Positions 969-31,586 of a DNA stretch of 64,000 bases are shown here, in pieces. A program made the translations under genes and the position numbers. Every line of letters starts with the position of its first letter. The first letter of the stretch is position 1. The notes beneath the pieces were generated by a model. It saw nothing but the letters and a program-made list of their open reading frames with translations, ran no database searches and was not told where the DNA came from. The stretch lies in NCBI GenBank assembly GCA_044892525.1, contig CM097886.1, forward strand, positions 66,464,001 to 66,528,000, read 5' to 3'. This DNA comes from Schmidtea polychroa. Lineage: Eukaryota.

Positions 969-972
969 CAGT
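969..972 (+). other. Target-site duplication CAGT (partner at 31587-31590)
   Basis: ...tttCAGT|TGTTGG at the left end and CCAACA|CAGTga at the right end. Confidence 0.9.
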
Positions 973-3905
973 TGTTGGGCTAAAACGTGGAGTTTCGAAA
1001 ACTGGAGCGAATAGAAAAGTAATCCTTGAAAAATAAACGAAATAAAATAAAAATATAAAGTACCATCAAATTCTCGCTAATAAATCAAAAAGGAACAATA
1101 AAATATCAATAAGAGAATAAGAATAAGTAAAACAAACTAAATAAAACCCAATAAACCCCTTGAGATTTAGAAATAAAGCGATTTAGGACCCAGCAGATGA
1201 AATAGAATAAAATAAGTAAAAAAGTGACAACAAATAAAAGAGAAATTTAAGAAATAAATAAAAAATAAAACTATCTTTAAGTCTAATTAAAACAAAAAAT
1301 TATATTACAATAAAGTAGCAATAAATCCACAGGAAAAATAGGAGGAAAATAATAAAAATAAGAAAATAAATAAAATAATAATAGGAAATAAGTTAAGTCA
1401 TTAAAATCTAATATATTATAATAAAAAACATAAAAATAATAATAAATAGAAAAAATACAAACAAGTCGTGTCCTGATTGGACGAAAAATAATATATAAGG
1501 AACGGAAAATATCTGTAGATTACCACTTTTAAAAAATTTTTCTACAGGTAAACTTCGGTTCGTTATATACTACCACTTTTAAAAAATTTTTCTACAGACT
1601 TGACAGATTTCGGAACCTTTAATTATCCTACAGCGAACTAGTTCAGAGATTACCAAACCAAACCGAGGAAGAAATATATAGAGGCCAAACTACAAATCCA
1701 TTCGGGAAAAATTTTAAATTCAACCGATTTAACTTCAGTTTTCGAAACTCAAGGTATGCCTCGACAGTTGTTTTATTTATGGTTATTAGTTTAATTTAGT
1801 TAATCATTATAAATATAATAAAACAATTTCTTATAATAAATTTATTTAAATGAAAAGTTGCCTTTCTTCATGGTACCGACGACTGTACCATCTGAGAGCT
1901 CCCAGTATGATGTGGACGAGTTGGAATTGCACTGCAGTAGAGGACACCACCGTGGAAAGGTTGGTATGCATAAGAAATCACGAACATGCTGAAAAGAGAA
2001 TGTGATATTTGTAGAGAGTGATATTTGTCATATTAGAGATCCACCAAGGAGACGATGAGGTTTCGATCATGTAGGAGGAGCAACATCATACTCGGAGATC
2101 CAAATGATATGGTCGCCGAGTAAATTTTATTTATGCATTTTCTATCATTCAGTTTGATTATTATATTGTTGATTTGATTGAATGGAAAAGAGTTGATTGG
2201 TCCCTCATGACGGTGCAAGGAGGTGGCAGCAATGAATGCCTTCTTGGGTGTGTCGTGAGGGGTGAAGAAACTCAGTAGGTGGAACATCCAGTTAATAAAT
2301 GACCGTTCCTTCATCAAGCGCGATCGTCTGTAGAGCGTACCATCGGTTCATTTAGTTAAATCGAGATTTCCAGTAGATGTAGAGATGATTTGAATTCCGA
2401 ATGCAGACAATTCAGAGCGAGATAGGCAGTGACGTTCGTACAGATTCGATGATAATCCACATAGATAGGAGGAAAATTCTTTTCGTGATATTCAGCCGGT
2501 CAATCGACGTAGTTAGGAAAGAACGGTGTCGACCATAGATTGCAAGTAAATCCAACGATTTTTCGGTGACGCTCTGCGTTTGCAAGGTTCTGTCTGATTT
2601 GTGCCGTCATGATGTTAGCGGCTACATCCATTGTCGATGTACTCTTACGATTTGATTGTCGTCCTTGAGTCACCAATGCCAGTGATAAAGAATCTCTCGC
2701 TGACAGGGAAGTAAACATCTTGTAGTGAAATTATCAAAATTCTTACTTCGAGCCCGCAGACAGTAGTTGTCAACGATAACGAAATCAGTTGATTTGCATT
2801 AGCCTGCGTAGAGTTAGTCGACAGGAGATATCTGATAACGTCCTGGAGAAGGAGATAACATGTTAACTTTTCTGGGAAAATGTCAAATGAATAAGCTGAT
2901 AGTCATTGATCTGAATTAATATCGTAAAAGGAAATTAGATGATATTGTTGAGCTTACCCAATAATCTATGAAGTTGTCGCCCACTCAGATTGATTAATCT
3001 GATTTTTCGATTCATCTACGGCTGCTTATTTGAGGAATCTATTACGCAACCGCTAATATTCCGACTTGAGCATGCACATACACACGCACCACAGTCAAAT
3101 ATGCATAGGGCAGTGTAAAAGGAAATCAACGATTTTGGTGATGTAATAGCGGCATGATGGTATAAATTTCTCTAGAATAGCGAGATAATAGGATGAAGTA
3201 AGGGGATGGATTTCCCCTACACAACTCGATATACAATAATTTATCATAACAGCATAAACCATCATTCGCGGAGATAGCCAACATACAGTTACAGATACCA
3301 CCAGGAGTAATGACACACCTACACAGTCAATCATAATGCATAATCACAAGTAAACGTTTTCCATGACGACGATTTTCGACGCGTTATTGGAATTAATTAG
3401 ATGTAGATTAGAGCTGAATTTTCAACTGATTACACGATCAATTCCATAATTTTGAACGAGATAAAAACATAAATAATCTATTCCGTCGCCGTGAATTATT
3501 TCTCTGTAATGTTAGGCAGGCCTACCTCGACGAATTGCCATAATGATATCGGCAAAAATTCTTAATTAAAATATACTAATGGGAACAAGGTTGAAGGGGA
3601 TAAAGTAAAAGACGGGTTTTACCTGGGAATGGCCCATCCGAAATTAAACTCAAAGGGCGAGGTTTGTGTAGAAAGAATTTTTGGTATACGAATCCCCGTT
3701 TCCTTTTCTTAAATTACACGAATCAGGTGAAGAGATTTGAATGTTTGCAACTGAATGACTGCGTATAGAGATGGATGAAGAAGTGTGTGGGTCATCGTTG
3801 GGTGGTATGTTTGATCAAACTCCAAAACCATGCCCAAAAATTTGATTTTTCTTCACACTGATAGAGGTTTCTTCGAGTAAATATAAACAATGATTGATTT
3901 TCTAG

Positions 3906-4667
3906 ATGGCTACATCGTCCAACAACGCCAAAGAACTTCGCCCGTGTTTTTCTTGTGCGGACAAGAACGCGGATATCGCCCAACTCCACTTATATATCGG
4001 GGCTCTCAAAAAGAGAATTGATCTCTATGAAGGAACGTGGTTCTCCCCGCCACAAATGAAAGAGGAACGCAAGAAAATTCTCCGATTAGAGCATTGCAGG
4101 GACAGCCTGCTAGAGGAAAGCCGTTGTCAGCGGCTCACCATCAAAGCACAGTCAGAAGCCCTCCATAAGGTATATACGGAGGCAGAATTGGCTAAGCGGG
4201 TGCGAGAATTCCCCCTTCTGGATGGGACGAATGTCTTTCCTCGTCACCACCCGTCTCCTACATCTTCCGGCTCGCACTGCCAGGGGCACGGCTCACAACT
4301 GCCGCCCATTCCACCCCCGGTGTTGTCATGTCACCAGCCAAAGATAGGTGGACCTACTGATCCCATCGTAGCTCCAATCTTGGTAGCACCAATCGGTACC
4401 ACGAACACCGAAAAACCCCCGACTACCCGCAAACGGAAACGGCCAACTCGAGCCGAGAAGAACCAAAAACGCCGAGATGCGATGACAGCACTCGAGACGT
4501 CCTTATCGGCGGCGAAATCAAAAATCCAAGAGATAACGTCCTCCCATTCAATCCCCTCAAAGGAAGTCTTCCGCATTGTTCCAGCTGAGGGCATCAAATA
4601 CATTGTAGATAGCCGATTACCGGTCGACATAGATGAGATACTGGCCGATGGGGATAACTTTGTTTAA
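3906..4667 (+). CDS. LTR-encoded orphan protein (253 aa; N-terminal CxxC plus helical region, Pro-rich middle, basic NLS-like RKRKR)
   Basis: ATG-initiated ORF with GC-richer coding-like composition, immediately preceded by an acceptor-like TTTTCTAG and followed by AATAAA at 4798. Confidence 0.7.
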   Translation: MATSSNNAKELRPCFSCADKNADIAQLHLYIGALKKRIDLYEGTWFSPPQMKEERKKILRLEHCRDSLLEESRCQRLTIKAQSEALHKVYTEAELAKRVREFPLLDGTNVFPRHHPSPTSSGSHCQGHGSQLPPIPPPVLSCHQPKIGGPTDPIVAPILVAPIGTTNTEKPPTTRKRKRPTRAEKNQKRRDAMTALETSLSAAKSKIQEITSSHSIPSKEVFRIVPAEGIKYIVDSRLPVDIDEILADGDNFV

Positions 4668-4797
4668 TGTGATGTAAAATTGAGCTTGATTTCCTCTTCA
4701 TTGAGTTGTAAATTATCTCGTGAATGTTGCTAATGTTATATCTTTTTGACTGTTGTTGATCTGTTAGTAGTAATGATATTTTTATCGTTTCAGTGTC

Positions 4798-4803
4798 AAT
4801 AAA
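4798..4803 (+). terminator. Candidate LTR polyadenylation signal (copy at 31173-31178)
   Basis: AATAAA followed by a T/GT-rich tract about 400 bp before the LTR end, a plausible R/U5 position. The hexamer is common in this AT-rich DNA. Confidence 0.45.
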
Positions 4804-5221
4804 ATTTTCTGTTTGATTTTAGTTTTGTCGAGCTTTCATATATTTGTTTGTGCAATTAGAGTAGATGAGATAATGCTGCGGAATGAAGATAATTAAGGTT
4901 GAAGGTTGTTCCTTTGGACCAGGATCAGACCGAGTGACACGCATGTATATGGGTAAGTCCTTCTAAGGCACCGTGGGACCCGAACTGAGAAAGGGTTAGG
5001 AGTAGTCCTAAGGCAGGGGCTCACCTGCTAACCTTTTCCGACCCGTGTGAGCAGCACCAACATGGAACATCACCATGGGCTCATATGTGGGAATATGCAA
5101 TCAATCATTTGGAGTATGTGTAAAAAATGTATAACGGAGCCATGATGCTTGATAGGTGTGATGGAAAGGCATGTATAATTTTTTTTTTTTTTTTCTTCTC
5201 CACATACGCCAACATGATTTT

Positions 5222-5239
5222 TGGGGGCTCAGCCGGGAT
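5222..5239 (+). promoter_or_regulatory. Primer-binding site, tRNA-Pro type
   Basis: TGGGGGCTCAGCCGGGAT matches the complement of the canonical eukaryotic tRNA-Pro 3' end (TGGGGGCTCGTCCGGGAT) at 16/18 positions; it begins 7 nt after the LTR end. Confidence 0.85.
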
Positions 5240-5673
5240 CTATATTGATTTGTTTGATTGTCTATTTTTGTGTTATGATGTGTTAGATTAACAATTTAAT
5301 TAATTATGATAAAAACGGAATCGGGGCTGAAATGAATTATAGTGCAATAAAATGATACGAACTGTCTGAGTTTGAAATAGAGCATGTGGTGAATGAAACG
5401 AACCTAAATGAGTTGGAATGAATGTGATGAAGTATGATGAGAAAAGAAAACGGGAATTGGTTATTGTGGTTAATTTCAACTGGTTAAAATAAAAGGGGGG
5501 GCGGAGAAAGTAAGTGATTAAAGCGAAAAGATGAAAGGGGAACTTCAAAGATCGAATAAAATACAAAAGTTAAAACACTAACGCACAGAAGTCAACGAAT
5601 ACTAAATACAAATATAATAATATTATTTTTAATACCAGCAGGAACAAAATAATAACAACACATTCATTTAGAT

Positions 5674-6153
5674 ATGTCAGAAGCTAGACAACATCTACAA
5701 CAGCTAAGCCGGTTCGTCGAAATAGAAAATGATTCAATAAAAACATTAAGAGAAAAACTGAAACAAATAGAACTGCTAGAACAACAAAGCCACAACGCAC
5801 CGCTGATATCCAAACAAAACTTTCTAACCGACAGATTAGGATCAACAAATACCGATACCGACTTGTCTATTCATTACCAATGGTTTCAGCAACGTCTCGA
5901 CGACCCCGCTCTGAACATCGAATATGTGAGGATACGCGAACGAGTCAAAACTCTGTCTCAGCGGATACGAACATCAATAGTAGAGAAAGCAGCGGCCTTG
6001 AGAACTTGTAACATTTGCAAGATGCGACCTGTCAAAATTCTGATTCTACCTTGTGGGCACCTTAGCCATTGTGACGAATGCGCCGCCGGTTTAATCCGTT
6101 GTTCTATGTGCACATGTGTAATAAAAGAGAAGCACACCATCTACTTCAGTTAG
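5674..6153 (+). CDS. Coiled-coil + C-terminal IAP-type C3HC4 RING protein (putative E3 ligase, no BIR domain)
   Basis: CNICKMRPVKILILPCGHLSHCDECAAGLIRCSMCTCVIKEKHTIYFS-stop matches the IAP/XIAP-type terminal RING spacing and the ending xxF(Y)S. Confidence 0.85.
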   Translation: MSEARQHLQQLSRFVEIENDSIKTLREKLKQIELLEQQSHNAPLISKQNFLTDRLGSTNTDTDLSIHYQWFQQRLDDPALNIEYVRIRERVKTLSQRIRTSIVEKAAALRTCNICKMRPVKILILPCGHLSHCDECAAGLIRCSMCTCVIKEKHTIYFS

Positions 6154-6741
6154 GTATGCGATCGTCGCTCGGTGAAGGAAACTGGATGATTAACAATTAG
6201 ATTAAACATTTTTGATATTTTTGTTCTGAATTAATTCGGTAATGTTTTATAATGATAGCATATATTATTTGTAATGTGGAGTAAATAACTAATAAATCCT
6301 TTCTGTGTATTCATTTCATTATACGAAGTTATAAATCGATTTGTGTTGTTATAATTTTCACCATGAAGAAAGGGCATTTTAAAAATTTAAATTGATTATT
6401 TAAAGTGGAACTAGTCCCATCATAGTGCTAAAGGGGGAATAAACCGAGCCACCTTCGGGAGGTACGATATTGGAACCATTTGGGAAGGGACAACCGATCA
6501 CCCCGAGTAAGAGATGTAAGGCGAGGTACCATCGCGAATATTGAAAAGTTTCTGCGGTATGGCTGATCACCATACCAATGTAGAAATGGATCAATGCGAT
6601 CGTTTTGCGTTTTAAGCAAGGGGGGAAAGGGGAAACCTTCCAAAGCGGTACAGATTAAGTCGACAAATAAAAGTAAAAATAGGAAGATGACAGTATAGAA
6701 TAAAGACAGAAAAGGAACGGAAGCATGCAGAGTTTAGAGAC

Positions 6742-7175
6742 ATTAAGGCCGAGCTGTTGAAAAGTCCAGCCGGTCAGGGAAATTGAAACTGAGCTGTGAA
6801 AAGTCCAGCCAGTCGGAGATATTAAGGCCGAGCTGTTGAAAAGTCCAGCCGGTCAGGAAAAATTAAAACTGAGCTGTGAAAAGCCCAGCCAGTCGGAGAT
6901 ATTAAGGCCGAGCTGTTGAAAAGTCCAGCCGGTCAGGAAAAATTAAAACTGAGCTGTGAAAAGTCCAGCCAGTCGGAGATATTAAGGCCGAGCTGTTGAA
7001 AAGTCCAGCCGGTCAGGAAAAATTAAAACTGAGCTGTGAAAAGTCCAGCCAGTTCGGAGATGAAGAAGATTGAGCTGTTGAATAGTGCCAGCCAGTCGTA
7101 AGATCGAGTTGTTGAATAGTCCAACCGGTCAGGAGAAGAAGATTGAGCTGTTGAAAAGTGCCAGCCAGTCGTAAA
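6742..7175 (+). repeat. Tandem array in the element leader: four 79-80 bp units, each a dimer of ~40-bp subunits, plus degenerate subunits
   Basis: Units start at 6742, 6821, 6901 and 6981; the core GAGCTGT(T)GAAAAGTCCAGCC(A/G)GTC recurs about 11 times. Confidence 0.92.
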
Positions 7176-8401
7176 GGCCTAAAGTAATAGTGAGATAGCA
7201 TTCAAGCTACAAGTTGATAACATTTAAATTACTAGTGAGATGGAATATTAAAGCTAGCTAGAAGCAAAGTGAGTTTGAAATATGGTATTTGAATTTAGAA
7301 AGGATTAAACGAGCTCGTGGGAGGTAATAATGAAATTTTTTTTTTTTGTGAGAAAGAGAAACTGAAAAGGAAAATGAATTAAAAAGATAATGAAAATAAA
7401 GAATAAGTGAGAATAAATGATGAGTAAAAGAGGAAGGTGATTAATTAATTAAAAGGGATCCCAGATAAGTAGACAAAGTTCTACAGAATTTTTTGGTTTA
7501 AACCGGTTAAACGAATTTTGTTTTGGTTACAGAGTAGAACCAAATAAGGGGAAACAGAGATGAAAGATTAAGTAAAATAGCGGAACCGCGTAAAAGGATT
7601 AAGAAAATAGGGGAGGTAATAAGCAGTAACTGACAACGACCTATCGATATTATAAATGCTAACTATAGATAATTTATACGACTATATAGATAATTGTTAC
7701 TACCCCAAATAGATAATTTAAAATCGACGAAAAATATGGGTTGATGGGTAATTATATTCCGCGAAGAAGTGTATGAGGGGAAATGAAGAGAAGTATAACA
7801 GAGGCCCTAAAACGGTGTCTGTGCTTGAATGTGGCAAAAAGGAATGATTGATTCGTGTAAGCAAAGGCAACACGATATCATATTTTCATTGTAGACATCA
7901 ATCCAACCAAGTCAATTCAGAACCAGCTCAAGAGGAATCCAGAGAATATACAAACAACCCAGGAAAAGCAATTCAGAACCCGCACAAAGGAAGACAATAT
8001 CAGAACCGAACTCGACCAATTCAGCAGACGCTAACCGTAGAAAATCCACGTGAAAAGACAGGAAAGAGTAAGAAAGAAACACGGATAAACCCAACCTTAG
8101 ATCTTCAAGTAAGCCAGGAGACGTATTATTTTCAGGAGACGAATTAGATCAACTCAAAAGAGGACGATCATTTAGGCAGCAGAGAGGAATATCACAAGGA
8201 GCAAAAAGACCCCACAAAACACCGATATACGATCAAGAAAACCCCACAGCCGGACATACGCCCAGTCGATCAAGAAGTAGAGAAAGTCTATCCGATATAA
8301 CAAACAACCTAACCGGGTCAACGGAAGAATTATCCGTCCATAGTTTAGCTACATCACTAGAAAATTTAAAAGAAATAATAGCATTTCAAGAACCAATCAA
8401 G

Positions 8402-11400
8402 ATGAATGTAGCAAAAACCGACGAATATAAAGAAAAATTTAGAGGCGAACCGTTCAACGGGAATGCGAACAAGTTGGCAACGTTCATAACCAATTTTGAA
8501 GTCTATATCGATGTGTGTGGATGGACATCCGAAGCAATTAGTAAACGAATGCCTCTGTTTTTGTGCGATAGCGCACTCGAAGTGTATCTGGAAGCAAAAG
8601 AAAGAAATACGAAATTAGACAATTGGGAAAACATCAAAACATTTTTGAGAAAAACATTCGGAGCCAGCAAACCGATAAATCAAGCGTTAGGTGAACTGGC
8701 AAGTAGAAAACAAAGAGCAAACGAGTCAATTACGTTATACGCAAGTGAATTACGAAGATTGGCAAAGAAGGCCATGAACGGAAACTTGCCGGAGGAAAAC
8801 CTAATTGGGTACTTCATAGAAGGACTACGCCGAGAAGAGGTAAGGGCCTCGGTGGGATGTCAAATGTGTAAAACACTAGAGGAAGCTATAGATTGGGCCA
8901 CAAGATGCGAACTACACCTCCCGGCACAAATGAATGTCATGCAAGAGGAAGGAAGAATCGCAACAGCAGCGGTGAAAACGGAAAATGGAGATAACAATAA
9001 TCATGAACCAAAGATGAATCAGTTTATACCAGGTGCGCATCAAATTTTCAAACCACCACAAGGACGATCAAACGGGAATAACAGTGAACGCAACAACTCG
9101 AACAATGGGAACAACTTTAATAATCGACGAAATATGAACGATAACAAACAATGCCGAACATGCGGTAAACCAGGACATTGGGATAGAGATTGTTACCGAA
9201 ACGCAAATTGCAATAGGTGTGGACGACGAGGACACACGGAAAATATATGCCAATCGAGAGGATGTTTTAACTGCGGGCAACCAGGTCATATCTCAAGAGA
9301 CTGTCGAGAAAGGAGCCAACAGCAACGACCACCACAGCGAAATAATAACTATGCACCAAATCCGCAACGACAAAGTAATCCTAGTGAGGGAAAGCAAATG
9401 AATGTGATGCAAGAAATTTCACAAATGAAGCAGATGATGCAACAAATGATGAGACCGAGACAAGAGCAAGTACCACAACCAACCCAGAATATACGCATGA
9501 TGAGAAGCACCGAGAATCTTAACAATTATGAAGTGCAACAACATGCACAAGAATGGCAAAGACTACAAGCTGAAGAAGAAAGGATAAAAAGAGAGCGAAT
9601 TCAGCAGCGACAAGAACAACCACTACGAATAAATATGATGAGGATGGTAAAGGAGATAAAGGAGCAATATTGTTACAATTACGGTAAAAATCCAAGAGTT
9701 GTACCTATGAGCGAACCAGAGAAACCGAAAGAAACAATTCCAGCAGCAAAAAAGGAAAATTCAACAACATCGCTAAAAGGAAATCAGAGAATTCAGAAAA
9801 TATTTTGGAAAAAGATAAAAGATAAAATCGAAAGAGAAAATGAGCAAACAAAAACAGAAGCAGAAGCAGAAAATAACGAAAATGGAAAACAGATCAATCA
9901 TCTAAAGCATAATATGATACGAGAATTAGACTCAGAGGAGCTAACGATACTCGAGAACAAAAAGTTAAAGAAGGTACCAAGAATGAGAAATTTACGAATT
10001 AATATGATGAGGACAACAAAGAAGGTGTTGTCAACAGATGACGATGAGGATTATGTGAGTAGCCTTGGTGGAGAAATGTTACAGTTAAATGAAAATATCG
10101 ACCAACTAAGAGAAAAGATCGGAGCAGATGAGGATGAAAGAGAAAGCGACGTGACAAGCGAAAGCGAAGACGAGAATATCGAAATGAAATTGAGAAAAGA
10201 AAGAGAAGAAGCGATAAAACAAGTAAAGGAAATACTTCCAGTGGTAGTAAGAAACCAGGAGTTCATCGACCTTATACCATATAAACGCTTCTTACAAAAG
10301 ATAATGAAACTAGAAAGAAACGAAAAAGATCTAATACCAAACGAGGAAAAAGCGATAATAAAGAAGTATATGGAAAAAATGAAACAAGCGGAGACAACAC
10401 GGTATGTAATAAAAATCGGAACGAGTAAAGGGCTCGAGAGAATATGGATAAAAAGCACAGTCACAGACGACCTTTTCGATTGGATAAGAGAACATTTGGG
10501 CAGCTCGAGAAAGAAAGAGTATTTATATCAATATCAAGGAGAACAAATTAAGCCAGACATGCACCTAATAGATGCATTGATCTGGCCAGGAGAAACTCAA
10601 ATATTGAAATTGTATAAAGAAAGGCAACCAGCAAATATTCATGAATGGGCTAAAGACGCCAAGGCCGAGTATGACTTTAACCTCAAGCTGAAGCTGGACC
10701 AAATAAAACAATGCACCTTGCGACGAAATCTAGATAAATTAATCAAACAAATTCAAGAACAAGTCGAAGATAACTGGGATTTACTCATAGCAAGACGAAC
10801 TCCAGACATGCATGAACTAATGAGCCGATTACGAGATACAGAATTGCTCAGGATGAGCGATTGGAGAACCATAAATTTGATCCACAAATATGGAAGGTTG
10901 AAAGAAACGCAACCGCAGAAATTAGAAATAACCATATGGTTACCAAACGAGGAGAAACGACGAATAAAGATGAGTAATCAGAGTACGGTGGATGACTTAG
11001 TAACCAAGATAAACCAAGAGATAACGGAAAAAGTACGAAGCGAGAGTAGCGACGGGATGATAGATGACGTAGTCATGATGTACGATAAAATAATATTACG
11101 GGCCGAAGACGACACCTCGCTAAGCGAAATGGGAATGTGGGATAATCATCAAATCATCAGAATATTGCCCATGGACGAATTCCGAACAAGAGATATAACA
11201 TACCAGAAAGAAATACGAGACAGGATGAAAACGCTATATCAAAAATCAGTAGAGATAATTGAAATTCATCAACAGTGGCTAAAAGAAAAAGAGCTTCAAG
11301 GAAAAATAAAGAAACTAAGTGTTAGATCCTGCAGACGAACCCCATGGGAAAGGACGTGGAATGCGGAAAACAAAGAATGGGAAATCAGGAAAGGGATTTT

Positions 11401-21000: not shown

Positions 21001-22283
21001 ACCGCAGATTGTTGAATGATATAAATGTCGAGGACGACATTTTAAACGATAGCGGGGGAGATAAAGACGATAAAGACGATAAAGACGACGATAATAATGA
21101 AAAAGGTCGAAACGGGAATAAAGAGAAAGAGAAATCAGAGGAGAATAATCAAGAAAATAACGACGCGAGTAGGAAAAAAGAGGAAAATAACCCGAGAAAC
21201 CGAATGAAGCAAGAAGAAAAGACGAATAGTGGAAAACAGAGGGTATGCCTACTTTTTACCAACAAAGAAATGGAGACAAATATGATGATAATGATACTCG
21301 TACTAACAATGGTGGAAATGATAACAGCCCAGGGAGGAATGAGAACGATAAAAGAAGCCAAAGAAACGGAAAATAAGGACAACAAAGAGGAAGAACTAAA
21401 ACAAGAAAAGAAAAAACAAGTACAAGAGCAGCAATGGGATCTAAAAGAAGAATGGGATTTAAAAGAAAGGTGTATATTAGGAAGATGTATGTCTAGAGCT
21501 TATCAGAGACTAGTGTTAAAAAATGAAGATGCAGAACCAATAACGGAAGTAAGAATACAAGAAGCATACCGAAATCGAGAAGGAAAGAGAATAACGAAAG
21601 TCAAAGGGAAGGAGGTACACCTGGGAAAAGGAGGTGAGGTAGTGATAACGCAACTCCAGCCAAGAAAAGAACACAAAGTCTGCATCGCAAGATTAAGACC
21701 GGGTGAAGACTGTCTACAATATGTAATACAGCAACAACCTCCAAAAGAATACACAATATGCATCTGGAGAAAAGATACAGCGAGAGAATGTCGACGATAC
21801 CCTGGGAAAAGAGGGAAGAAAAGAAAAATCGATGATGAAAAAGATGAGCAAGGAAAACGCAAGAAAAACAGTGAGAAACATCAAGACAATTATGTATCCG
21901 AGGAGGAGATGGAGAAAATACAAAAAATGGCAAAGGAAGGTATGAACGAGGAAATAGCAAGAATACGAGGAATGATGAAAGGAAATGGCAAAGACGGTAA
22001 TCTAAAAAGCACAGAAGCAATATCAACAATAACGAGCAAGGAAAAAGCGGAAATTATAAGCATAAAACAGATGATGTGGATCAGCGGCATAATAATAACA
22101 GGGGCCTTTTTAATCATAACGGGGGGGACAATAAAAATAATCAAAGATAGACGGCATCACGGAGAACTAGAAATGGCCAGAATAAGAAATTTTCAACATC
22201 GTGTAAAACGACCAAGTAATATCAAGCAGGAACAGTGGGTGGAGGCCTGGAATGCTCAGCGCCCTCCAAGCTCACGTATATAG
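11946..22283 (+). CDS. pol: Env-Pol polyprotein (frame open from 11946; ORF track starts at TTG 12000): UBL end, AT-hook, Bcl-2-like, gB-like Env, PR, RT, RNaseH, IN, ankyrin repeats, FN3-like membrane protein
   Basis: Uninterrupted 3,400+ codon frame containing IDTGAN (15636), YIDD (16854), ATDASG...EREALA...TDHQPL, HxxxxxH...CITC, D,D35E ([19 protein letters not shown]) and a GPY motif. Confidence 0.95.
   Translation, partial: [3445 protein letters not shown]
12625..13085 (+). other. Bcl-2-like helical domain within the polyprotein
   Basis: BH2-like [14 protein letters not shown] (GGW at 13062-13070), preceded by a hydrophobic BH1-position helix [12 protein letters not shown] that lacks the NWGR signature. 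Confidence 0.6.
13209..15100 (+). other. env: Envelope glycoprotein of the chuvirus/Jingchuvirales G (herpesvirus gB-like class III fusogen) family, with internal signal peptide and C-terminal TM
   Basis: Signal [22 protein letters not shown], then Cys-rich ectodomain with chuvirus-G-like motifs (YYCG, [59 protein letters not shown]), then [22 protein letters not shown] TM. Confidence 0.85.
15567..15930 (+). other. Retropepsin aspartic protease domain
   Basis: [21 protein letters not shown] ... CIIGTDLM. Confidence 0.93.
16380..17650 (+). other. Reverse transcriptase + RNase H
   Basis: [71 protein letters not shown]. Confidence 0.97.
17690..19020 (+). other. Integrase (HHCC zinc domain, DDE core, GPY/F module)
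   Basis: [10 protein letters not shown]...CITC; [31 protein letters not shown]. Confidence 0.96.
19278..20790 (+). other. Two ankyrin-repeat clusters downstream of integrase (internal duplication)
   Basis: [24 protein letters not shown] (cluster 1); [25 protein letters not shown] (cluster 2). Each cluster is followed by a similar LxxWRxPxxNxYxxxINExxxxGEN motif (19662 and 20685). Confidence 0.85.
21282..22283 (+). other. C-terminal type-I membrane protein module: signal peptide, FN3-like Cys-containing ectodomain, TM, basic tail
   Basis: [17 protein letters not shown] signal; [16 protein letters not shown] and [11 protein letters not shown] resemble the FN3 L-x-P-x-T-x-Y-x-V strand; TM [21 protein letters not shown]. 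Confidence 0.55.
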
Positions 22284-22451
22284 AAAGGATTATGACTGTA
22301 TATAGATTGTAAAAAGTAAGTAGGAAATATTTATTTATATAACAGTATTCTATATTTTTATATAAGCGCGGTATCAATAGTATATAATGATGGGGATAAT
22401 TAATATGAAAATAAAATTAGATAAGGATTGAAAAGTATATATAAATTAAGA

Positions 22452-22811
22452 ATGGAGCGAATAGGCGAGGAAGTAAACCACAGTACAACAACCGAGGAGA
22501 TGTGGAAACAACAATGTGCAATGTTAACTCAAGTGATTTCGAATTTACAGGAACAAGGACTCGCTGTACAAAGAAGCTTAGTCGAAAGTTTAAATAAAGG
22601 CTTCAATTATGTAAGAATAATCGAAGACCAACGAATGAAAATAGAACAAATGCAGCGAGAGATAGACCGAATATCACGATACAGCCAGGTGCAAGAAGAG
22701 GAGTTAATAAGAATCGCGGAAGAGATGGAGCGAGAGGAGATAGAAGACTGGTCAGAATGGTTAACCAACAGGGAAGAGGGCGGACAAGAGGCCGACTCTT
22801 CCAGCCAATAA
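22452..22811 (+). CDS. Small coiled-coil accessory protein
   Basis: ATG at 22452 in the 22428-22811 frame; heptad, E/Q/R-rich sequence. Confidence 0.65.
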   Translation: MERIGEEVNHSTTTEEMWKQQCAMLTQVISNLQEQGLAVQRSLVESLNKGFNYVRIIEDQRMKIEQMQREIDRISRYSQVQEEELIRIAEEMEREEIEDWSEWLTNREEGGQEADSSSQ

Positions 22812-22900
22812 ATATAACCTAAAATAGCAATGTAAATAAATGTAAATAAAAATACGAAACTGTACCAGTAACGAATATATGTATATATATAATTATAGAA

Positions 22901-24289
22901 ATGGATAAGCGACAACGAGAAGAATTCAGAGAAATTGTTGAACAAATCAGAAAGTCCACCACAATTCGAATACACAACCATGTAACGTGTGGAATATGCA
23001 AGAGCTTATTAAGAGAACCTCACCAAACCAGATGTGGATGCAGAATGTGCAGAGAATGTGTAGAGGAGATAATAAAGAAGGGACCACAATGGTGCCCAGT
23101 ATGCAAAGAAACAATGATAACAAGTTTGGGAGATACAAACGAAGATAAAGCAGCTGTAAAAGATATGTTGAATGCAAACCTAGGATGTAAAAACACCCCA
23201 TGTAATTGGCGAGGAGTGATATGGGAAGTGAGGCAACATATGGAGCAATGTGAGTATAAAATCAGTCAATGCAAACGTTGCCAAGAAGAGATTAAAGTCA
23301 ATGAAGAAGCAGAACATCAAAGTCGATGCGAAGAAAGACTAGAGAAATGCGAGTATTGCGGAGAAAACGACACCTGGAAGAAACTAATCAGTCAACATCA
23401 CAACATACAAGAGGAGAAAGTGTGCGCAGAATTCAGAGGAGAATGCCCCAACAAATGCGATAAACCCGGAGTAATAAAACTCGCTCAACATCTAAAAGAG
23501 TGTGAAAGAAAAAAGATAACGTGTGTGCTAGGAAAATGGGGATGTCCGAAACAATTACACCGAGGGGAATTACCCCAACATCTAGCAGAAAACGTATCAA
23601 CACACGCGGAAATATGGTCAACGGTATTACAGGAAAACGAAAGGAAAACCGAAAACTTAGAAAGAGAAATAGTCTCGCTAAAAGCGTTGGTAAAAGAACT
23701 ATTGGAAGAAAAGGAAGCATTTGAAGAGGCGAGAACAAGTACAAAGATACAGACAGATCTAGTAGAAACTAGCAACATTATGGTGAAAGAACTACATCAA
23801 AAAGTAAGCGAATTAAACCTCAACGAATTAATACCTACGGCTCCGTACATATGGAAAATAACGGGAGTAAAAGAGAAGATGCAGAGAGCGAGAAATGGAA
23901 AGGATACAACATTACTAAGTCCAGCATTCTACTCATGGAAAAACGGGTATAAAATGAAAATGAAAGCATACCCCAATGGGGATGGAAGTGCATACGGAAC
24001 GCATTTCTCAGTATTCTTCTTGATGTGCAAAGGGCCATACGACGAGTTAATAGAATGGCCATTCAAAGCAAAAATAGACCTCGCAATGATGAACTATCAA
24101 AGTATACACGAACAGAGTTTCCATACAGCGGGAAACCTCGTATGTTACCAAAGGCCCTTGGAAGAAGAAGGACCAGCAACTGGAGCACCAAATTTCATCC
24201 TACAGCGGAAAGTAGAAGACATGACGAGAAACGACACTATATACATAAAAATAGCGGTGAGGCGAGATGGGAAGAGTAGGACTGAGTAG
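22901..24289 (+). CDS. traf: Full-length intronless TRAF-family protein (RING, TRAF zinc fingers, coiled coil, MATH)
   Basis: RING CGICKSLLREPHQTRCGCRMCRECV...CPVC; zinc fingers CKNTPCNWRG..HMEQC; MATH YIWKI...SPAFYSWKNGYKMKMKAYPNGDG..YGTHFSVFF.MCKGPYD.LIEWPF. Confidence 0.95.
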   Translation: MDKRQREEFREIVEQIRKSTTIRIHNHVTCGICKSLLREPHQTRCGCRMCRECVEEIIKKGPQWCPVCKETMITSLGDTNEDKAAVKDMLNANLGCKNTPCNWRGVIWEVRQHMEQCEYKISQCKRCQEEIKVNEEAEHQSRCEERLEKCEYCGENDTWKKLISQHHNIQEEKVCAEFRGECPNKCDKPGVIKLAQHLKECERKKITCVLGKWGCPKQLHRGELPQHLAENVSTHAEIWSTVLQENERKTENLEREIVSLKALVKELLEEKEAFEEARTSTKIQTDLVETSNIMVKELHQKVSELNLNELIPTAPYIWKITGVKEKMQRARNGKDTTLLSPAFYSWKNGYKMKMKAYPNGDGSAYGTHFSVFFLMCKGPYDELIEWPFKAKIDLAMMNYQSIHEQSFHTAGNLVCYQRPLEEEGPATGAPNFILQRKVEDMTRNDTIYIKIAVRRDGKSRTE

Positions 24290-24510
24290 TGAGACGAATA
24301 ATTTTGTATATAATAAATTGTAAATATCGGCGTATATATCCAGTAAAATATTATATAGTAGTGTAGAAAAATTCCCCCCAAATCTACCAAAGGTAAACTT
24401 AAGCGAAAAACTCCTAAAACAACTCCTATAACGAATTATAAAAATAAATAAATAATAAACCAGATATAAGCGTACAACGTTAAGTTAATGATATCGTTAT
24501 TTAGACAAAG

Positions 24511-25548
24511 ATGACACAAGAAGGAACTGAAGCCCCAAACCACGAAACCAAAGTCAATAAAATCCATAAGGGAAAATGGGTCAAAGTAATGTTACAATTG
24601 ACGAACCAGACCCACAACCATCTCGAAGAGGCCAGGGAATACGAGAATAACAAATATCAGTGGTTAGTAAACAATTTAAGAGCCGAAGCAGAAGCATGCA
24701 AAAGAGCCTCTAAGTGGGCATCATTGGAAAACACTCGCCAAGAAGCGCACAGCCACTATTTAAAACAGTTAGTGCAGGAAGCACGGAAACGATTGACGGA
24801 CGAAAACACAAAACGAGAAGCAGAAAAACAAAAGGAAGGAAGGAAAATGAATCACCTATTGGCAGAAGCCCGAAACTGGAAGCGGCAGAACAAAGAGATG
24901 AAAAAAGAAATGAAAGAATTGCCTATGAGATTAGAATACGAAAGCGAACAAGGCAAATGGGAGGAAAATCTGGTCATAAGAGAAGAACTGAAACGGCTCA
25001 GAAAGATTGCGGCCCGAAGCCAAACATGGCAGACCAAAGCCATGGAATTTGAAAGACATCTAGCCATGAAAATCTCCATAAGGGAGCACGAGAATGCCGC
25101 AATGGAAGAACTGATACTTCAACAGTCAGGACGACTCGTGGAACTGGTGAATAAGGTCGCAGAACTAGAACGAGATGTCAACGGATACCAAGGAGCTCTG
25201 GAGCAGAGAAATATGGTACTGGCGGGGAAAAACAAAAAGTTAGAAAACGAAAGGAAAATGTATAACGAAAATCTTAAAAATCTGGAGATAGAGATCAAGA
25301 AATGGGAAAACGGCGAAAAAGCGGAAGAGCTAGAAAAACAGATAGAGGTAAGAGACGATGAAACCAGGTATCTAACATACCTGTTGGACGAGGAACTTAA
25401 CGTGTCAAGAGCACTAAGAGACGAAGTGCAAGAACTTAGAGCGCAGATTCCCCGGTACTACATCCCATTTGATCCCATCGCACTCCAATTACAAACGTCA
25501 GTAGAAAGCGATGAGGGATACGTAGGCCAGGAAGAGACCTTTGTATAA
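24511..25548 (+). CDS. Long coiled-coil accessory protein (345 aa)
   Basis: Uninterrupted ATG ORF, E/K/R/L-rich heptads throughout. Confidence 0.8.
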   Translation: MTQEGTEAPNHETKVNKIHKGKWVKVMLQLTNQTHNHLEEAREYENNKYQWLVNNLRAEAEACKRASKWASLENTRQEAHSHYLKQLVQEARKRLTDENTKREAEKQKEGRKMNHLLAEARNWKRQNKEMKKEMKELPMRLEYESEQGKWEENLVIREELKRLRKIAARSQTWQTKAMEFERHLAMKISIREHENAAMEELILQQSGRLVELVNKVAELERDVNGYQGALEQRNMVLAGKNKKLENERKMYNENLKNLEIEIKKWENGEKAEELEKQIEVRDDETRYLTYLLDEELNVSRALRDEVQELRAQIPRYYIPFDPIALQLQTSVESDEGYVGQEETFV

Positions 25549-25722
25549 AGATAAAAGGAAAGATAAAAAATATAAAAATCGGGACCTGTATCCCAACCAA
25601 AAAAATTAATGGTACAATAAAAGTATGAAAGGGACTGTAACCCTGATTATAAAATAACATATAAATGTATAAGTATAAGCCGCACTGTAGCGCAATTATT
25701 AACTATGTATATATTATAGAAA

Positions 25723-26424
25723 ATGAACACTGAAAACGGACAACCCAGCATAACATCTATAATCGAGTTAGAAGAGGGAGAAATTGAAGTTGATGAAGTG
25801 GAGAGGAAGAAAACCATCAAGGAAGAATTACAAGAAGAGAGACAGGAAAACGAAAGATTAGTTGAAAGGTGGAGAGATAATCGAAAAATGATTAAAGTAT
25901 TGAAAAGAGAATATATCCTGTTAGAAGGAGTAAAGAAAGAAGTAGAGGAAGAAAACGAATGGCTTCACGAGCAAAGAAAGCGAGGGAGAAATTGGGAAAA
26001 GATCGCGGAAGAATTATGGCAGGAGAGGGCCAGTCGAAAGGCCGACGAAGTGATTAGTGACTATTGGAAAACCGAGGCACGGAAACACCAAGAAAGCCTG
26101 AAAGGGTTACAACTCCAACTACACCAAAAACAGAAAGAATGTGAGATAATGAGACGAATGAACAACAAATACCAGGAAATAGACAACGAAGGAGACGGGG
26201 AAAGGGAAAATGATTTTCTACAGATAATGAACCATAGAAACCTCGAAAGAGCAACACAAGAAATAAAAGCACTAAAAGAAAAAATAATAACCCTAAGGCA
26301 ACAGTTAGACGAAAGAGACAAACAATTAAAAGTACTACCCGAATTGAGAAAACGAGTAATAAAAGCAGAAATGAGAGTGATGAGAACATCCGAGAAAACC
26401 CGTAAAAAGAAAACCCGGCAATAA
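25723..26424 (+). CDS. Coiled-coil accessory protein (233 aa) with basic C-terminus
   Basis: Uninterrupted ATG ORF, heptad-rich, ends KTRKKKTRQ. Confidence 0.8.
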   Translation: MNTENGQPSITSIIELEEGEIEVDEVERKKTIKEELQEERQENERLVERWRDNRKMIKVLKREYILLEGVKKEVEEENEWLHEQRKRGRNWEKIAEELWQERASRKADEVISDYWKTEARKHQESLKGLQLQLHQKQKECEIMRRMNNKYQEIDNEGDGERENDFLQIMNHRNLERATQEIKALKEKIITLRQQLDERDKQLKVLPELRKRVIKAEMRVMRTSEKTRKKKTRQ

Positions 26425-26479
26425 TTAAAGATGAATGATCAATGTAAATAATTGTAAATAAAAATTTTCGTATAGTAGT

Positions 26480-27116
26480 ATGTGGTTCGGAGCAACCCTG
26501 GTGACAATAATGATGATAGCGATAAACGGAATACCCATATGGCAGCCAATCCCAACATTCTGGGAGAATCCCGAGAAACAGCAAAACCCGTTAACCAAAC
26601 TGAAAAGCGAAAGAAAGCTCTCCAACAACATCCCGAAACAATGCTGGAACAAAGCCGTCTGGCAAAAACTTCAAATGCAACTCCACCTACAAACCCAAAA
26701 AAATCGAACAGCTCGAAATTCTCTTACAAGAACAAACCACCCAACAATCCTTGAAGGAAATCATCATGAAGAAGGAAGTAAAAGAAAGCCAAGTCTTACT
26801 CTATACTACCATCAGTGAAACCCTTATCATCTGCGCACTAGTCATCTGGAAAGCGTATGATATTCATCGAACATGGAGAAGAAACCAGTCACTATCCGAG
26901 AAACACGAAAGAAAGAACCCACGATCGAAAAATAAACATAAACGAGCAGTACATTTTCAACAACCAAACCCACCCGACCAAATGCAACAAAATCTATCTC
27001 CTGACCAAATGCCTGTTACAATCCAGCTCCCCACGATAACAACTTCAACCAGCCATCCGACCCAGAACTCAACCAACCAAGACAGTAATAACATTCCGAA
27101 CCTTGAGATCATGTGA
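26480..27116 (+). CDS. Probable ~211-aa type-I membrane protein split by a +1 shift at A7 (26697-26703)
   Basis: Frame from ATG 26480 gives signal peptide MWFGATLVTIMMIAING. Removing one A joins it to QKIEQLEILLQEQ...TLIICALVIWKAY (TM) and a Q/P/T-rich tail ending at 27116. Confidence 0.6.
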
Positions 27117-27347
27117 CATCGACTATTCATAAACTTTGTGTGTATAAATCCGGTCACCTAAAGTGGCCACTGCTTGCTTATATTTGTCCTTTTATCTGTT
27201 TAATTAAAGTATTATTTAGTTATTTTAATTTTATGTTTGTGTGAATGTTGACCGTGAAATTAGTTGTTATGCCGAAAAAAGGTATGAGTTAAACGTATGA
27301 TATTATGTGAATTGCGGGGCGCAATTTTAACGGGCCCCGGAGTGATT

Positions 27348-30300
27348 TGTTGGGCTAAAACGTGGAGTTTCGAAAACTGGAGCGAATAGAAAAGTAATCC
27401 TTGAAAAATAAACGAAATAAAATAAAAATATAAAGTACCATCAAATTCTCGCTAATAAATCAAAAAGGAACAATAAAATATCAATAAGAGAATAAGAATA
27501 AGTAAAACAAACTAAATAAAACCCAATAAACCCCTTGAGATTTAGAAATAAAGCGATTTAGGACCCAGCAGATGAAATAGAATAAAATAAGTAAAAAAGT
27601 GACAACAAATAAAAGAGAAATTTAAGAAATAAATAAAAAATAAAACTATCTTTAAGTCTAATTAAAACAAAAAATTATATTACAATAAAGTAGCAATAAA
27701 TCCACAGGAAAAATAGGAGGAAAATAATAAAAATAAGAAAATAAATAAAATAATAATAGGAAATAAGTTAAGTCATTAAAATCTAATATATTATAATAAA
27801 AAACATAAAAATAATAATAAATAGAAAAAATACAAACAAGTCGTGTCCTGATTGGACGAAAAATAATATATAAGGAACGGAAAATATCTGTAGATTACCA
27901 CTTTTAAAAAATTTTTCTACAGGTAAACTTCGGTTCGTTATATACTACCACTTTTAAAAAATTTTTCTACAGACTTGACAGATTTCGGAACCTTTAATTA
28001 TCCTACAGCGAACTAGTTCAGAGATTACCAAACCAAACCGAGGAAGAAATATATAGAGGCCAAACTACAAATCCATTCGGGAAAAATTTTAAATTCAACC
28101 GATTTAACTTCAGTTTTCGAAACTCAAGGTATGCCTCGACAGTTGTTTTATTTATGGTTATTAGTTTAATTTAGTTAATCATTATAAATATAATAAAACA
28201 ATTTCTTATAATAAATTTATTTAAATGAAAAGTTGCCTTTCTTCATGGTACCGACGACTGTACCATCTGAGAGCTCCCAGTATGATGTGGACGAGTTGGA
28301 ATTGCACTGCAGTAGAGGACACCACCGTGGAAAGGTTGGTATGCATAAGAAATCACGAACATGCTGAAAAGAGAATGTGATATTTGTAGAGAGTGATATT
28401 TGTCATATTAGAGATCCACCAAGGAGACGATGAGGTTTCGATCATGTAGGAGGAGCAACATCATACTCGGAGATCCAAATGATATGGTCGCCGAGTAAAT
28501 TTTATTTATGCATTTTCTATCATTCAGTTTGATTATTATATTGTTGATTTGATTGAATGGAAAAGAGTTGATTGGTCCCTCATGACGGTGCAAGGAGGTG
28601 GCAGCAATGAATGCCTTCTTGGGTGTGTCGTGAGGGGTGAAGAAACTCAGTAGGTGGAACATCCAGTTAATAAATGACCGTTCCTTCATCAAGCGCGATC
28701 GTCTGTAGAGCGTACCATCGGTTCATTTAGTTAAATCGAGATTTCCAGTAGATGTAGAGATGATTTGAATTCCGAATGCAGACAATTCAGAGCGAGATAG
28801 GCAGTGACGTTCGTACAGATTCGATGATAATCCACATAGATAGGAGGAAAATTCTTTTCGTGATATTCAGCCGGTCAATCGACGTAGTTAGGAAAGAACG
28901 GTGTCGACCATAGATTGCAAGTAAATCCAACGATTTTTCGGTGACGCTCTGCGTTTGCAAGGTTCTGTCTGATTTGTGCCGTCATGATGTTAGCGGCTAC
29001 ATCCATTGTCGATGTACTCTTACGATTTGATTGTCGTCCTTGAGTCACCAATGCCAGTGATAAAGAATCTCTCGCTGACAGGGAAGTAAACATCTTGTAG
29101 TGAAATTATCAAAATTCTTACTTCGAGCCCGCAGACAGTAGTTGTCAACGATAACGAAATCAGTTGATTTGCATTAGCCTGCGTAGAGTTAGTCGACAGG
29201 AGATATCTGATAACGTCCTGGAGAAGGAGATAACATGTTAACTTTTCTGGGAAAATGTCAAATGAATAAGCTGATAGTCATTGATCTGAATTAATATCGT
29301 AAAAGGAAATTAGATGATATTGTTGAGCTTACCCAATAATCTATGAAGTTGTCGCCCACTCAGATTGATTAATCTGATTTTTCGATTCATCTACGGCTGC
29401 TTATTTGAGGAATCTATTACGCAACCGCTAATATTCCGACTTGAGCATGCACATACACACGCACCACAGTCAAATATGCATAGGGCAGTGTAAAAGGAAA
29501 TCAACGATTTTGGTGATGTAATAGCGGCATGATGGTATAAATTTCTCTAGAATAGCGAGATAATAGGATGAAGTAAGGGGATGGATTTCCCCTACACAAC
29601 TCGATATACAATAATTTATCATAACAGCATAAACCATCATTCGCGGAGATAGCCAACATACAGTTACAGATACCACCAGGAGTAATGACACACCTACACA
29701 GTCAATCATAATGCATAATCACAAGTAAACGTTTTCCATGACGACGATTTTCGACGCGTTATTGGAATTAATTAGATGTAGATTAGAGCTGAATTTTCAA
29801 CTGATTACACGATCAATTCCATAATTTTGAACGAGATAAAAACATAAATAATCTATTCCGTCGCCGTGAATTATTTCTCTGTAATGTTAGGCAGGCCTAC
29901 CTCGACGAATTGCCATAATGATATCGGCAAAAATTCTTAATTAAAATATACTAATGGGAACAAGGTTGAAGGGGATAAAGTAAAAGACGGGTTTTACCTG
30001 GGAATGGCCCATCCGAAATTAAACTCAAAGGGCGAGGTTTGTGTAGAAAGAATTTTTGGTATACGAATCCCCGTTTCCTTTTCTTAAATTACACGAATCA
30101 GGTGAAGAGATTTGAATGTTTGCAACTGAATGACTGCGTATAGAGATGGATGAAGAAGTGTGTGGGTCATCGTTGGGTGGTATGTTTGATCAAACTCCAA
30201 AACCATGCCCAAAAATTTGATTTTTCTTCACACTGATAGAGGTTTCTTCGAGTAAATATAAACAATGATTGATTTTCTAGATGGCTACATCGTCCAACAA

Positions 30301-31586
30301 CGCCAAAGAACTTCGCCCGTGTTTTTCTTGTGCGGACAAGAACGCGGATATCGCCCAACTCCACTTATATATCGGGGCTCTCAAAAAGAGAATTGATCTC
30401 TATGAAGGAACGTGGTTCTCCCCGCCACAAATGAAAGAGGAACGCAAGAAAATTCTCCGATTAGAGCATTGCAGGGACAGCCTGCTAGAGGAAAGCCGTT
30501 GTCAGCGGCTCACCATCAAAGCACAGTCAGAAGCCCTCCATAAGGTATATACGGAGGCAGAATTGGCTAAGCGGGTGCGAGAATTCCCCCTTCTGGATGG
30601 GACGAATGTCTTTCCTCGTCACCACCCGTCTCCTACATCTTCCGGCTCGCACTGCCAGGGGCACGGCTCACAACTGCCGCCCATTCCACCCCCGGTGTTG
30701 TCATGTCACCAGCCAAAGATAGGTGGACCTACTGATCCCATCGTAGCTCCAATCTTGGTAGCACCAATCGGTACCACGAACACCGAAAAACCCCCGACTA
30801 CCCGCAAACGGAAACGGCCAACTCGAGCCGAGAAGAACCAAAAACGCCGAGATGCGATGACAGCACTCGAGACGTCCTTATCGGCGGCGAAATCAAAAAT
30901 CCAAGAGATAACGTCCTCCCATTCAATCCCCTCAAAGGAAGTCTTCCGCATTGTTCCAGCTGAGGGCATCAAATACATTGTAGATAGCCGATTACCGGTC
31001 GACATAGATGAGATACTGGCCGATGGGGATAACTTTGTTTAATGTGATGTAAAATTGAGCTTGATTTCCTCTTCATTGAGTTGTAAATTATCTCGTGAAT
31101 GTTGCTAATGTTATATCTTTTTGACTGTTGTTGATCTGTTAGTAGTAATGATATTTTTATCGTTTCAGTGTCAATAAAATTTTCTGTTTGATTTTAGTTT
31201 TGTCGAGCTTTCATATATTTGTTTGTGCAATTAGAGTAGATGAGATAATGCTGCGGAATGAAGATAATTAAGGTTGAAGGTTGTTCCTTTGGACCAGGAT
31301 CAGACCGAGTGACACGCATGTATATGGGTAAGTCCTTCTAAGGCACCGTGGGACCCGAACTGAGAAAGGGTTAGGAGTAGTCCTAAGGCAGGGGCTCACC
31401 TGCTAACCTTTTCCGACCCGTGTGAGCAGCACCAACATGGAACATCACCATGGGCTCATATGTGGGAATATGCAATCAATCATTTGGAGTATGTGTAGAA
31501 AATGTATAACGGAGCCATGATGCTTGATAGGTGTGATGGAAAGGCATGTATAATTTTTTTTTTTTTCTTCTCCACATACGCCAACA
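27348..31586 (+). repeat. 3' LTR (4,239 bp)
   Basis: Copy of 973-5214. The only differences I saw by eye are A>G at 5123/31498 and T16 versus T13 near the end. Confidence 0.97.
30281..31042 (+). CDS. Second copy of the LTR-encoded orphan protein (3' LTR)
   Basis: Identical translation to 3906-4667. Confidence 0.7.
   Translation: MATSSNNAKELRPCFSCADKNADIAQLHLYIGALKKRIDLYEGTWFSPPQMKEERKKILRLEHCRDSLLEESRCQRLTIKAQSEALHKVYTEAELAKRVREFPLLDGTNVFPRHHPSPTSSGSHCQGHGSQLPPIPPPVLSCHQPKIGGPTDPIVAPILVAPIGTTNTEKPPTTRKRKRPTRAEKNQKRRDAMTALETSLSAAKSKIQEITSSHSIPSKEVFRIVPAEGIKYIVDSRLPVDIDEILADGDNFV

Follow-up and report, generated by a model that had tools for sequence, protein, structure and literature searches.

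A young, high-copy Burro-like Ty3/gypsy family with an in-frame fusion glycoprotein and selected cargo genes in Schmidtea polychroa

The 64,000-nt stretch of the Schmidtea polychroa genome analysed here (the window; GenBank assembly GCA_044892525.1, contig CM097886.1, forward-strand positions 66,464,001 to 66,528,000) contains a 30,614 bp element at window positions 973–31586, bounded by long terminal repeats (LTRs), for which an original prediction made from the letters alone had proposed an intact, young gypsy element with the gene content of a complex retrovirus. This raises the question of whether such an element belongs to a family that is still moving, how it would spread, and what its additional genes, here called cargo, would do for it. 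Our analysis makes it very probable that the element inserted recently, carries two frameshifts, and belongs to a Burro-like Ty3/gypsy family of young age and high copy number, which encodes Gag, a fusion glycoprotein (Env) and Pol in one frame, is likely to spread by enveloped particles, and would use Bcl-2-like, RING and TRAF cargo to protect or retune the host cell.

Structure and age of the element

Both ends of the element carry TG...CA termini, a 4-bp duplication of the target site (CAGT) flanks the insertion, and the primer-binding site lies shortly behind the 5′ LTR (Table 1), where 18/18 bases can pair with the 3′ terminus, CCA included, of a tRNA-Pro(UGG) whose gene is found in the same genome. 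These features, together with the order of protease, reverse transcriptase (RT), RNase H and integrase in Pol, are those of Ty3/gypsy elements. Alignment of the two LTRs showed one substitution (5123/31498) and a difference of 3 bases in the length of a T-run, while the internal region of 22.1 kb has every long open reading frame (ORF) on the + strand; termini, target duplication, primer site, LTR similarity and strand were all as originally predicted, and none of the N stretches of the window lies inside the element. No clear polypurine tract was found ahead of the 3′ LTR (27324–27347 inspected), and no Rfam family matched anywhere in the element. The inspected interval is a GC-rich 24-mer, present before the 3′ LTR in 14/14 copies compared. 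The tRNA-Pro(UGG) genes, corresponding to the primer tRNA, are found in a tandem array with 475-bp spacing (C1:130901009-130952345), and the tRNA-Pro 3′-end pattern occurs 2,164 times genome-wide.

The insertion was further followed in contigs from sequencing runs. Flank contigs of runs X1 and X2 (possibly made from the source sample of the assembly) enter the left LTR by 29 bases. A 552-base contig of runs X5 and X6, which belong to another study, tracks the flank exactly to position 972 and then differs in sequence, which hints at an empty site and hence at insertion polymorphism; the corresponding test of the right flank gave no result. No RNA data set was listed as containing the flank.

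A search of the genome with the RT sequence gave 921 candidates, including other families, with the best 40 matches being 99–100% identical, while the gag-env junction gave 328 candidates and a 19-mer of the primer site was found at 183 exact places. Twenty copies, chosen as the best RT matches, were fetched for comparison. A full LTR pair with 0–3 substitutions in about 4.2 kb was present in 18/20, the others being copy 3, which is rearranged and has lost part of one LTR, and copy 20, which lacks its 3′ part, and a 4-bp target duplication was found in all 18 other copies with both ends. Solo LTRs look uncommon, since 34 of the best 40 matches to a mid-LTR query form 17 pairs, 16 of these about 26 kb apart. 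The family is young, abundant and recently active.

Polyprotein, frameshifts and cargo

Pfam placed Gag and zinc knuckles in the frame at 8072–12007; in the frame at 11946–22283 it found Env first, then the Pol domains (protease, RT, RNase H, integrase) and lastly ankyrin repeats. The two frames are separated by a frameshift near 11,900–12,000, inside a ubiquitin-like (UBL) domain, but the same junction reads as one frame in 29/29 other copies, and hence the family encodes a single polyprotein of about 4,600 residues. Programmed frameshifting from ORF1 into ORF2 was considered and rejected, as no frameshift exists in the other copies. The frameshift is the only frame-changing difference between the window and each of eight copies compared over 8,300–22,300. 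A second frameshift splits the last accessory ORF into an overlapping pair (26462–27116), which is one frame of 214–229 codons in 19/19 other copies holding the region. Both breaks are private to the window copy, and the description of the element as intact and essentially unbroken thus did not stand. As assembled, the window copy would be unable to make Env or Pol, and would be mobile solely via proteins of other copies, barring assembly errors.

Such errors are a real alternative for the breaks, as each of the two break regions contains a run of seven identical bases, and it is quite possible that the copy is intact in the animal, with both frameshifts introduced in the assembly consensus. 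A difference in homopolymer length is a typical long-read error, and it is also in the length of a T-run that the LTRs differ; two real indels would have had to arise in the short time that a single LTR substitution indicates, and the eight compared copies are without further frame-changing indel over 14 kb. However, the same assembly shows the two sites unbroken in 29/29 and 19/19 other copies, RT also slips in such runs, and other copies have breaks or errors too, namely a stop in copy L011 and a shift in copy L022 among the 29 junction copies, and split ORFs in 2/20 of the copies fetched.

Turning to the frame as the family encodes it, Gag (PF03732, E 3e-10) and the zinc knuckles (PF00098, E 5e-12) are followed by a Ubi2/SUMO-like domain (PF11976, E 8.6e-4), which closes the first frame ahead of the Bcl-2-like domain; this match is weak but above controls, and scores under the curated cut-off because the frameshift cuts the domain. 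The Bcl-2-like domain is weak as well (Pfam E 0.12), but reached 13.5 bits with a profile made from the genome's own Bcl-2 matches, compared to a best score of 5.1 in 200 shuffles. Bcl-2 folds were among its top fold matches (Z 8–8.7, 101–125 residues aligned), but unrelated bundles scored equally well and the model had been derived from an alignment rich in Bcl-2; a single-sequence fold of the region was uninformative (pLDDT 46). A homologue search with the Bcl-2 region found none, and a sequence search of solved structures with this region, the protease-RT linker and Env gave no match. Genome-wide there were 909 candidates for PF00452, and many of these lie in long frames of retroelements or in short genes present in many copies.

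Env ends in a hydrophobic membrane segment (aa 998–1016 of the frame), and over about 590 residues it is 33–41% identical to distant relatives. A genome search with PF24664 gave 2,581 candidates, and another family that carries an env shares 37% identity in it. The linker between protease and RT is a conserved domain of about 95 aa at the site of the dUTPase-like domain reported for related elements, with neither sequence nor profile matching a solved structure. In an RT phylogeny, which had been suggested as a check, the element grouped with four other gag-env-pol proteins with 99/99 support; the tree consists of 25 rows picked from an RT homologue search dominated by multi-RT gene models, and the env family is carried by only 4 of the 120 RT homologues listed.

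The predicted cargo largely stood. The env, ankyrin repeats, full-length TRAF and RING are firm, whereas the UBL and Bcl-2-like domains are weak but above controls, and the proposed IAP-RING held as an IAP-type RING, with no BIR domain found by Pfam in the ten element ORFs scanned, although a small spliced exon could escape an ORF scan. The Pfam scan located MATH solely in the separate ORF at 22901–24289, and the four ORFs downstream of pol besides TRAF match no known Pfam family.

Selection was assessed from nonsynonymous and synonymous polymorphism (pN/pS), pooled over 8 copies for the polyprotein and over 19 copies for TRAF and the downstream ORFs. Env had 64 synonymous versus 4 replacement changes (pN/pS 0.02), next to values of 0.03 for RT-RNase H, 0.05 for gag and 0.06 for integrase; higher values were obtained for the Bcl-2 region and TRAF (0.12 each), the post-Gag/UBL region (0.17), the ankyrin tail (0.21), the 345-aa ORF (0.22) and the 233-aa ORF (0.27), whereas the 119-aa ORF had 3 and 3 changes, too few to judge. 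The RING ORF has a ratio of nonsynonymous to synonymous substitution (dN/dS) of 0.08–0.14. These ratios indicate purifying selection on every ORF tested that could be judged, on Env as strongly as on RT, and the cargo is thus maintained by selection on a moving family. In this sense, of cargo being selected, the prediction of a recently active Burro-type giant Ty3/gypsy element with functional cargo was borne out.

With Env and cargo described, it can be asked whether the element is an orthologue of a named Schmidtea mediterranea family (Burro2, 3 or 4, or Smed_errantivirus_5) and hence already catalogued, which we regard as somewhat unlikely. It matches the published description in size class, in the order of its domains and in having three CCHC knuckles, and among the six S. 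mediterranea GAG-ENV-POL errantiviruses with gB-type env listed in PMC13524379, Smed_errantivirus_5 has the nearest Env by eye, with 50 of the first 100 aligned residues identical. An Env identity of about half is nevertheless low, given that Env is nearly invariant within the family studied here, and points to a different family. Furthermore, no BIR was found, whereas Burro1/GYPSM1 has one (B-IAP), and TRAF is a full-length gene of its own downstream of pol, accompanied by four further ORFs, while the Burro section of PMC6431247 places the MATH domain of GYPSM1 inside ORF1 and the TRAF of a Dugesia tigrina element upstream. The lack of BIR and the position of TRAF outside ORF1 set the element apart, by description, from Burro1 itself. 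The BURRO1 primers given in PMC8532177, as far as consulted, were absent from the window (3/3, at 3 mismatches) and from the genome (2/2 tested), which says little, since the smedwi-1 host control primer, which may span an intron, was absent from the genome as well. The original prediction was to be refuted by a fully annotated family, env included, that matched the element exactly; such annotation exists for the kind of element, and an exact-family match was not shown.

LTR gene and two alleles of the 5′ block

The orphan ORF carried by each LTR (Table 1) was unbroken in 19/20 copies, and no homologues of its product were found in Pfam or in three homology searches, with Atlas leads all under 0.9. 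Comparison of the copies showed that the 5′ block of the family exists as two alleles, with 11/20 copies carrying the LTR type of the window and 9/20 the other type, and with 105 and 70 genome-wide candidates, respectively. The other allele is about 45–85% identical from roughly 1,500 through the end of the LTR to about 6,500, while the remaining body is 95–100% identical, and the divergence begins just downstream of the CCAAT-like and TATA-like motifs. Copies of both types are young. Between the alleles, the LTR ORF has a dN of about 0.2 with saturated synonymous sites, which shows purifying selection on it, and no second long conserved frame was found in the LTR. A window-like RING inside the diverged block was present in 5/9 other-allele copies, and further mosaics occur within the block.

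The positions of the likely promoter and polyadenylation signal suggest a unique 3′ region (U3) of about 550 bp, a repeat region (R) of about 340 bp and a unique 5′ region (U5) of about 3.3 kb, which would hold the LTR gene. A further AATAAA at 4798 was dropped, as the other allele lacks it. Just past the conserved AATAAA, an ATG-started frame of about 40 codons (1870–1989) is open and about 64% alike in both alleles, and may be a micro-ORF or structured RNA. An island of about 90% identity between the alleles, with flanks of 50%, is located near the end of U5 (4930–5120), and is a possible packaging or integration signal without Rfam match.

Reverse transcription is described in the consulted part of PMC6894440 as giving progeny with R/U5 of one parent and U3 of the other, plus template switches. 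The pattern seen here resembles this R/U5-U3 recombination, but the swapped block is about 5 kb long and includes two protein-coding genes, of which the LTR gene is saturated at synonymous sites between alleles. A two-allele mosaic would be expected from such a process, because it would result if synthesis were primed on one parent RNA, moved at R to the other, and returned once near 6,500. An extended picture, which we consider unlikely but worth stating, is that of an enveloped, actively spreading complex retrovirus of flatworm cells, with an LTR that is mostly a 3.3-kb coding U5, and with a 5′ module (R-U5, orphan basic regulator, primer site and IAP-type ubiquitin ligase) kept as two ancient alleles, which would be swapped onto one Gag-Env-Pol body to change regulation or to evade silencing by small RNAs.

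Table 1. Features of the element in window coordinates
Feature	Position	Strand	Remarks
Target-site duplication CAGT, left	969–972		4 bp
5′ LTR, 'type A' allele	973–5214	+	4,242 bp
Inverted CCAAT-like box and TATA-like motif, likely promoter	1470–1499	+	box in 20/20 other 5′ LTRs, both alleles
AATAAA, likely polyadenylation signal ending R	1835–1840	+	kept in 20/20 other 5′ LTRs, both alleles
Orphan LTR ORF, 253 aa	3906–4667	+	coiled-coil-like N-terminus, basic KRKR patch
Primer-binding site, tRNA-Pro(UGG)	5222–5239	+	7 nt past 5′ LTR
RING ORF, 159 aa, IAP-type (cIAP/XIAP-like) C-terminal RING, no BIR	5674–6153	+	PF13920 E 5.9e-8; cIAP1 RING E 3.5e-9
80-bp tandem repeat in leader	6737–7174	+	0–6 exact units across 20 copies, number variable
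First polyprotein piece (first ATG 8402)	8072–12007	+	Gag, three CCHC knuckles, coiled and acidic regions, truncated UBL domain
Divergent Bcl-2-like domain	12873–13070	+	BH2-like GGW motif, no NWGR
Env, class III (gB/mononegavirus-type) fusion glycoprotein	13254–15026	+	PF24664 E 3e-72; in frame upstream of protease
Pol (Ty3/gypsy order)	15594–18479	+	protease, linker domain, RT, RNase H, integrase
Ankyrin repeats and C-terminal tail with membrane segment	19344–22283	+	PF12796 E 4e-17
Helical accessory ORF, 119 aa, no family	22452–22811	+	
TRAF, intronless, full-length (RING, zinc fingers, coiled coil, MATH)	22901–24289	+	TRAF3/TRAF2 E 2e-28
Coiled-coil-like accessory ORF, 345 aa, no family	24511–25548	+	
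Coiled-coil-like accessory ORF, 233 aa, no family	25723–26424	+	
Last accessory ORF, likely membrane protein	26480–27116	+	split by private frameshift; hydrophobic segment
3′ LTR	27348–31586	+	4,239 bp; second LTR ORF copy at 30281–31042
Target-site duplication CAGT, right	31587–31590		4 bp

Outside the element, the left flank contains a short, very high-copy repeat (450–750), with a summed contig depth hundreds of times that of the flank. About 6 kb downstream of the insertion is a host gene with FG-repeat exons (37716–41326), which is nucleoporin-like (PF15967, E 2.6e-8), followed by an apparently intronless open frame of 387 codons at 47455–48618 with a flavin amine oxidase match (PF01593, E 5e-25), and by two arrays of a related 21-bp AT-rich unit (55841–56134 and 60852–61512), about 4.9 kb apart.

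Proposed life cycle and comparison with Burro elements

We propose that the family is transcribed as one RNA starting near 1,520, which would be translated into the polyprotein of about 4,600 residues. The sequences of primer site and insertion show that reverse transcription is primed by tRNA-Pro and that integration produces 4-bp duplications. The polyprotein may be threaded through the membrane of the endoplasmic reticulum, leaving Gag, UBL and Bcl-2-like domain in the cytosol, Env in the lumen, and Pol in the cytosol on the Env tail. A hydrophobic stretch after the Bcl-2-like domain, visible in the translation but below the membrane-segment threshold, would be the Env signal, and the membrane segment at aa 998–1016 would terminate the Env ectodomain, with cleavage by signal peptidase and by the protease that the element encodes. 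Translation of the small ORFs is likely to be from spliced RNAs: splicing is suggested by an excess of YAG within 10 nt upstream of ORF starts (6/8, compared to 139/614 for all ATGs; about 0.003 in a post hoc binomial calculation by hand), and by the other allele keeping AG ahead of both its genes. Two genomes are likely to be co-packaged, and template switching would have exchanged the R-U5-leader-RING block between two old lineages. The domain families suggest that the cargo most likely prevents death of the producing cell, and dampens either TNF/innate signalling or restriction that depends on ubiquitin, while Env most likely carries particles between cells.

Several points weigh against this reading. 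Selection on env indicates that env is needed, which is no proof of a role in infection. The copies sampled lean young, since they were chosen as best RT matches. A candidate splice donor at 1751 was dropped, as the other LTR allele is without it. Finally, an anti-caspase role as reported for Burro1 is not a given, because the Bcl-2-like domain is weak and lacks NWGR, and the RING lacks a BIR.

Alternatively, the element may be a purely intracellular retrotransposon, in which Env would anchor the polyprotein in the membrane or be a scaffold for its assembly, and the cargo would be of use to the host, as a mutualism, rather than to viral spread. Env lies within the Gag-Pol frame, which is obligatory, and frame loss would be counter-selected irrespective of Env function, and the IAP of Burro1 is reported to protect stem cells (a 2026 study, as cited in the consulted part of PMC13465017, where the protein is a BIR-RING protein). 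However, upkeep of the frame leaves unexplained both the excess of synonymous over replacement changes across the whole ectodomain and the identity retained with distant Env relatives, and selection on hundreds of dispersed, moving copies points to a benefit for the element, making an intracellular mutualist improbable. That the structure is a collapsed or misassembled repeat is very improbable, even though assemblers tend to collapse repeats of this sort, with LTRs nearly identical and similar copies in the hundreds, because 18/20 other copies share the LTR-pair structure with duplications of their own, the window copy has a matching 4-bp duplication, and the contigs of X1 and X2 cross its left junction.

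The layout, with env and cargo, agrees with what has been described for Burro elements in S. mediterranea. The Burro section of PMC6431247 (2019) gives Burro/GYPSM1 an ORF1 of 4,873 aa with three CCHC knuckles and SUMO-like, BCL2, dUTPase-like, ankyrin, MATH/TRAF and BIR/RING domains, with an env in frame between gag and pol that matches mononegavirus fusion proteins; cargo is said there to occur either as subdomain or as accessory ORF, and Burro-type elements are proposed to be proviruses tinkering with host apoptosis and ubiquitination. Novelty of the cargo, as implied by the original prediction, therefore largely fell away, since the same list including the in-frame env, and the reading as host manipulation, were already published in that section. 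Shared between Burro1/GYPSM1 or Burro2-4, as described there, and the element studied here are a size of over 30 kb with multi-kb LTRs, a Ty3/gypsy pol, the giant polyprotein, the three knuckles, a SUMO-like domain before BCL2 (here, the weakly detected Bcl-2-like region), a mononegavirus-related env between this region and protease, and ankyrin, TRAF and IAP-related cargo. The element shows the Burro-group features tested, with the Bcl-2-like and dUTPase-like domains as candidates, and belongs to an already described kind. An LTR-borne ORF and two LTR/leader alleles are unmentioned in the Burro section.

Two other elements are close in organisation. The Burro-like element of D. tigrina, in the same section of PMC6431247, shares a TRAF accessory ORF outside the polyprotein and an env between gag and pol, but has an ORF1 of 5,140 aa, two CCHC knuckles rather than three, TRAF upstream rather than downstream, and midasin homology. 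Smed_errantivirus_5, one of the flatworm GAG-ENV-POL errantiviruses, for which this layout is published as well, shares the gB-type env, the GAG-ENV-POL order and multiple young copies; for the S. mediterranea elements, the consulted part of PMC13524379 gives neither LTR nor primer site, and its main text does not contain 'accessory' or 'ankyrin'. Burro-like elements may add to TRAF gene counts in planarian genomes. Next to these systems, the family described here provides population evidence from a second, still moving family, with an env as constrained as RT, the tested cargo selected, and an LTR with its own selected gene in two swappable alleles, and it makes testable whether a gB-type env moves gag-env-pol elements between cells, and whether cargo without BIR protects host cells as reported for Burro1.

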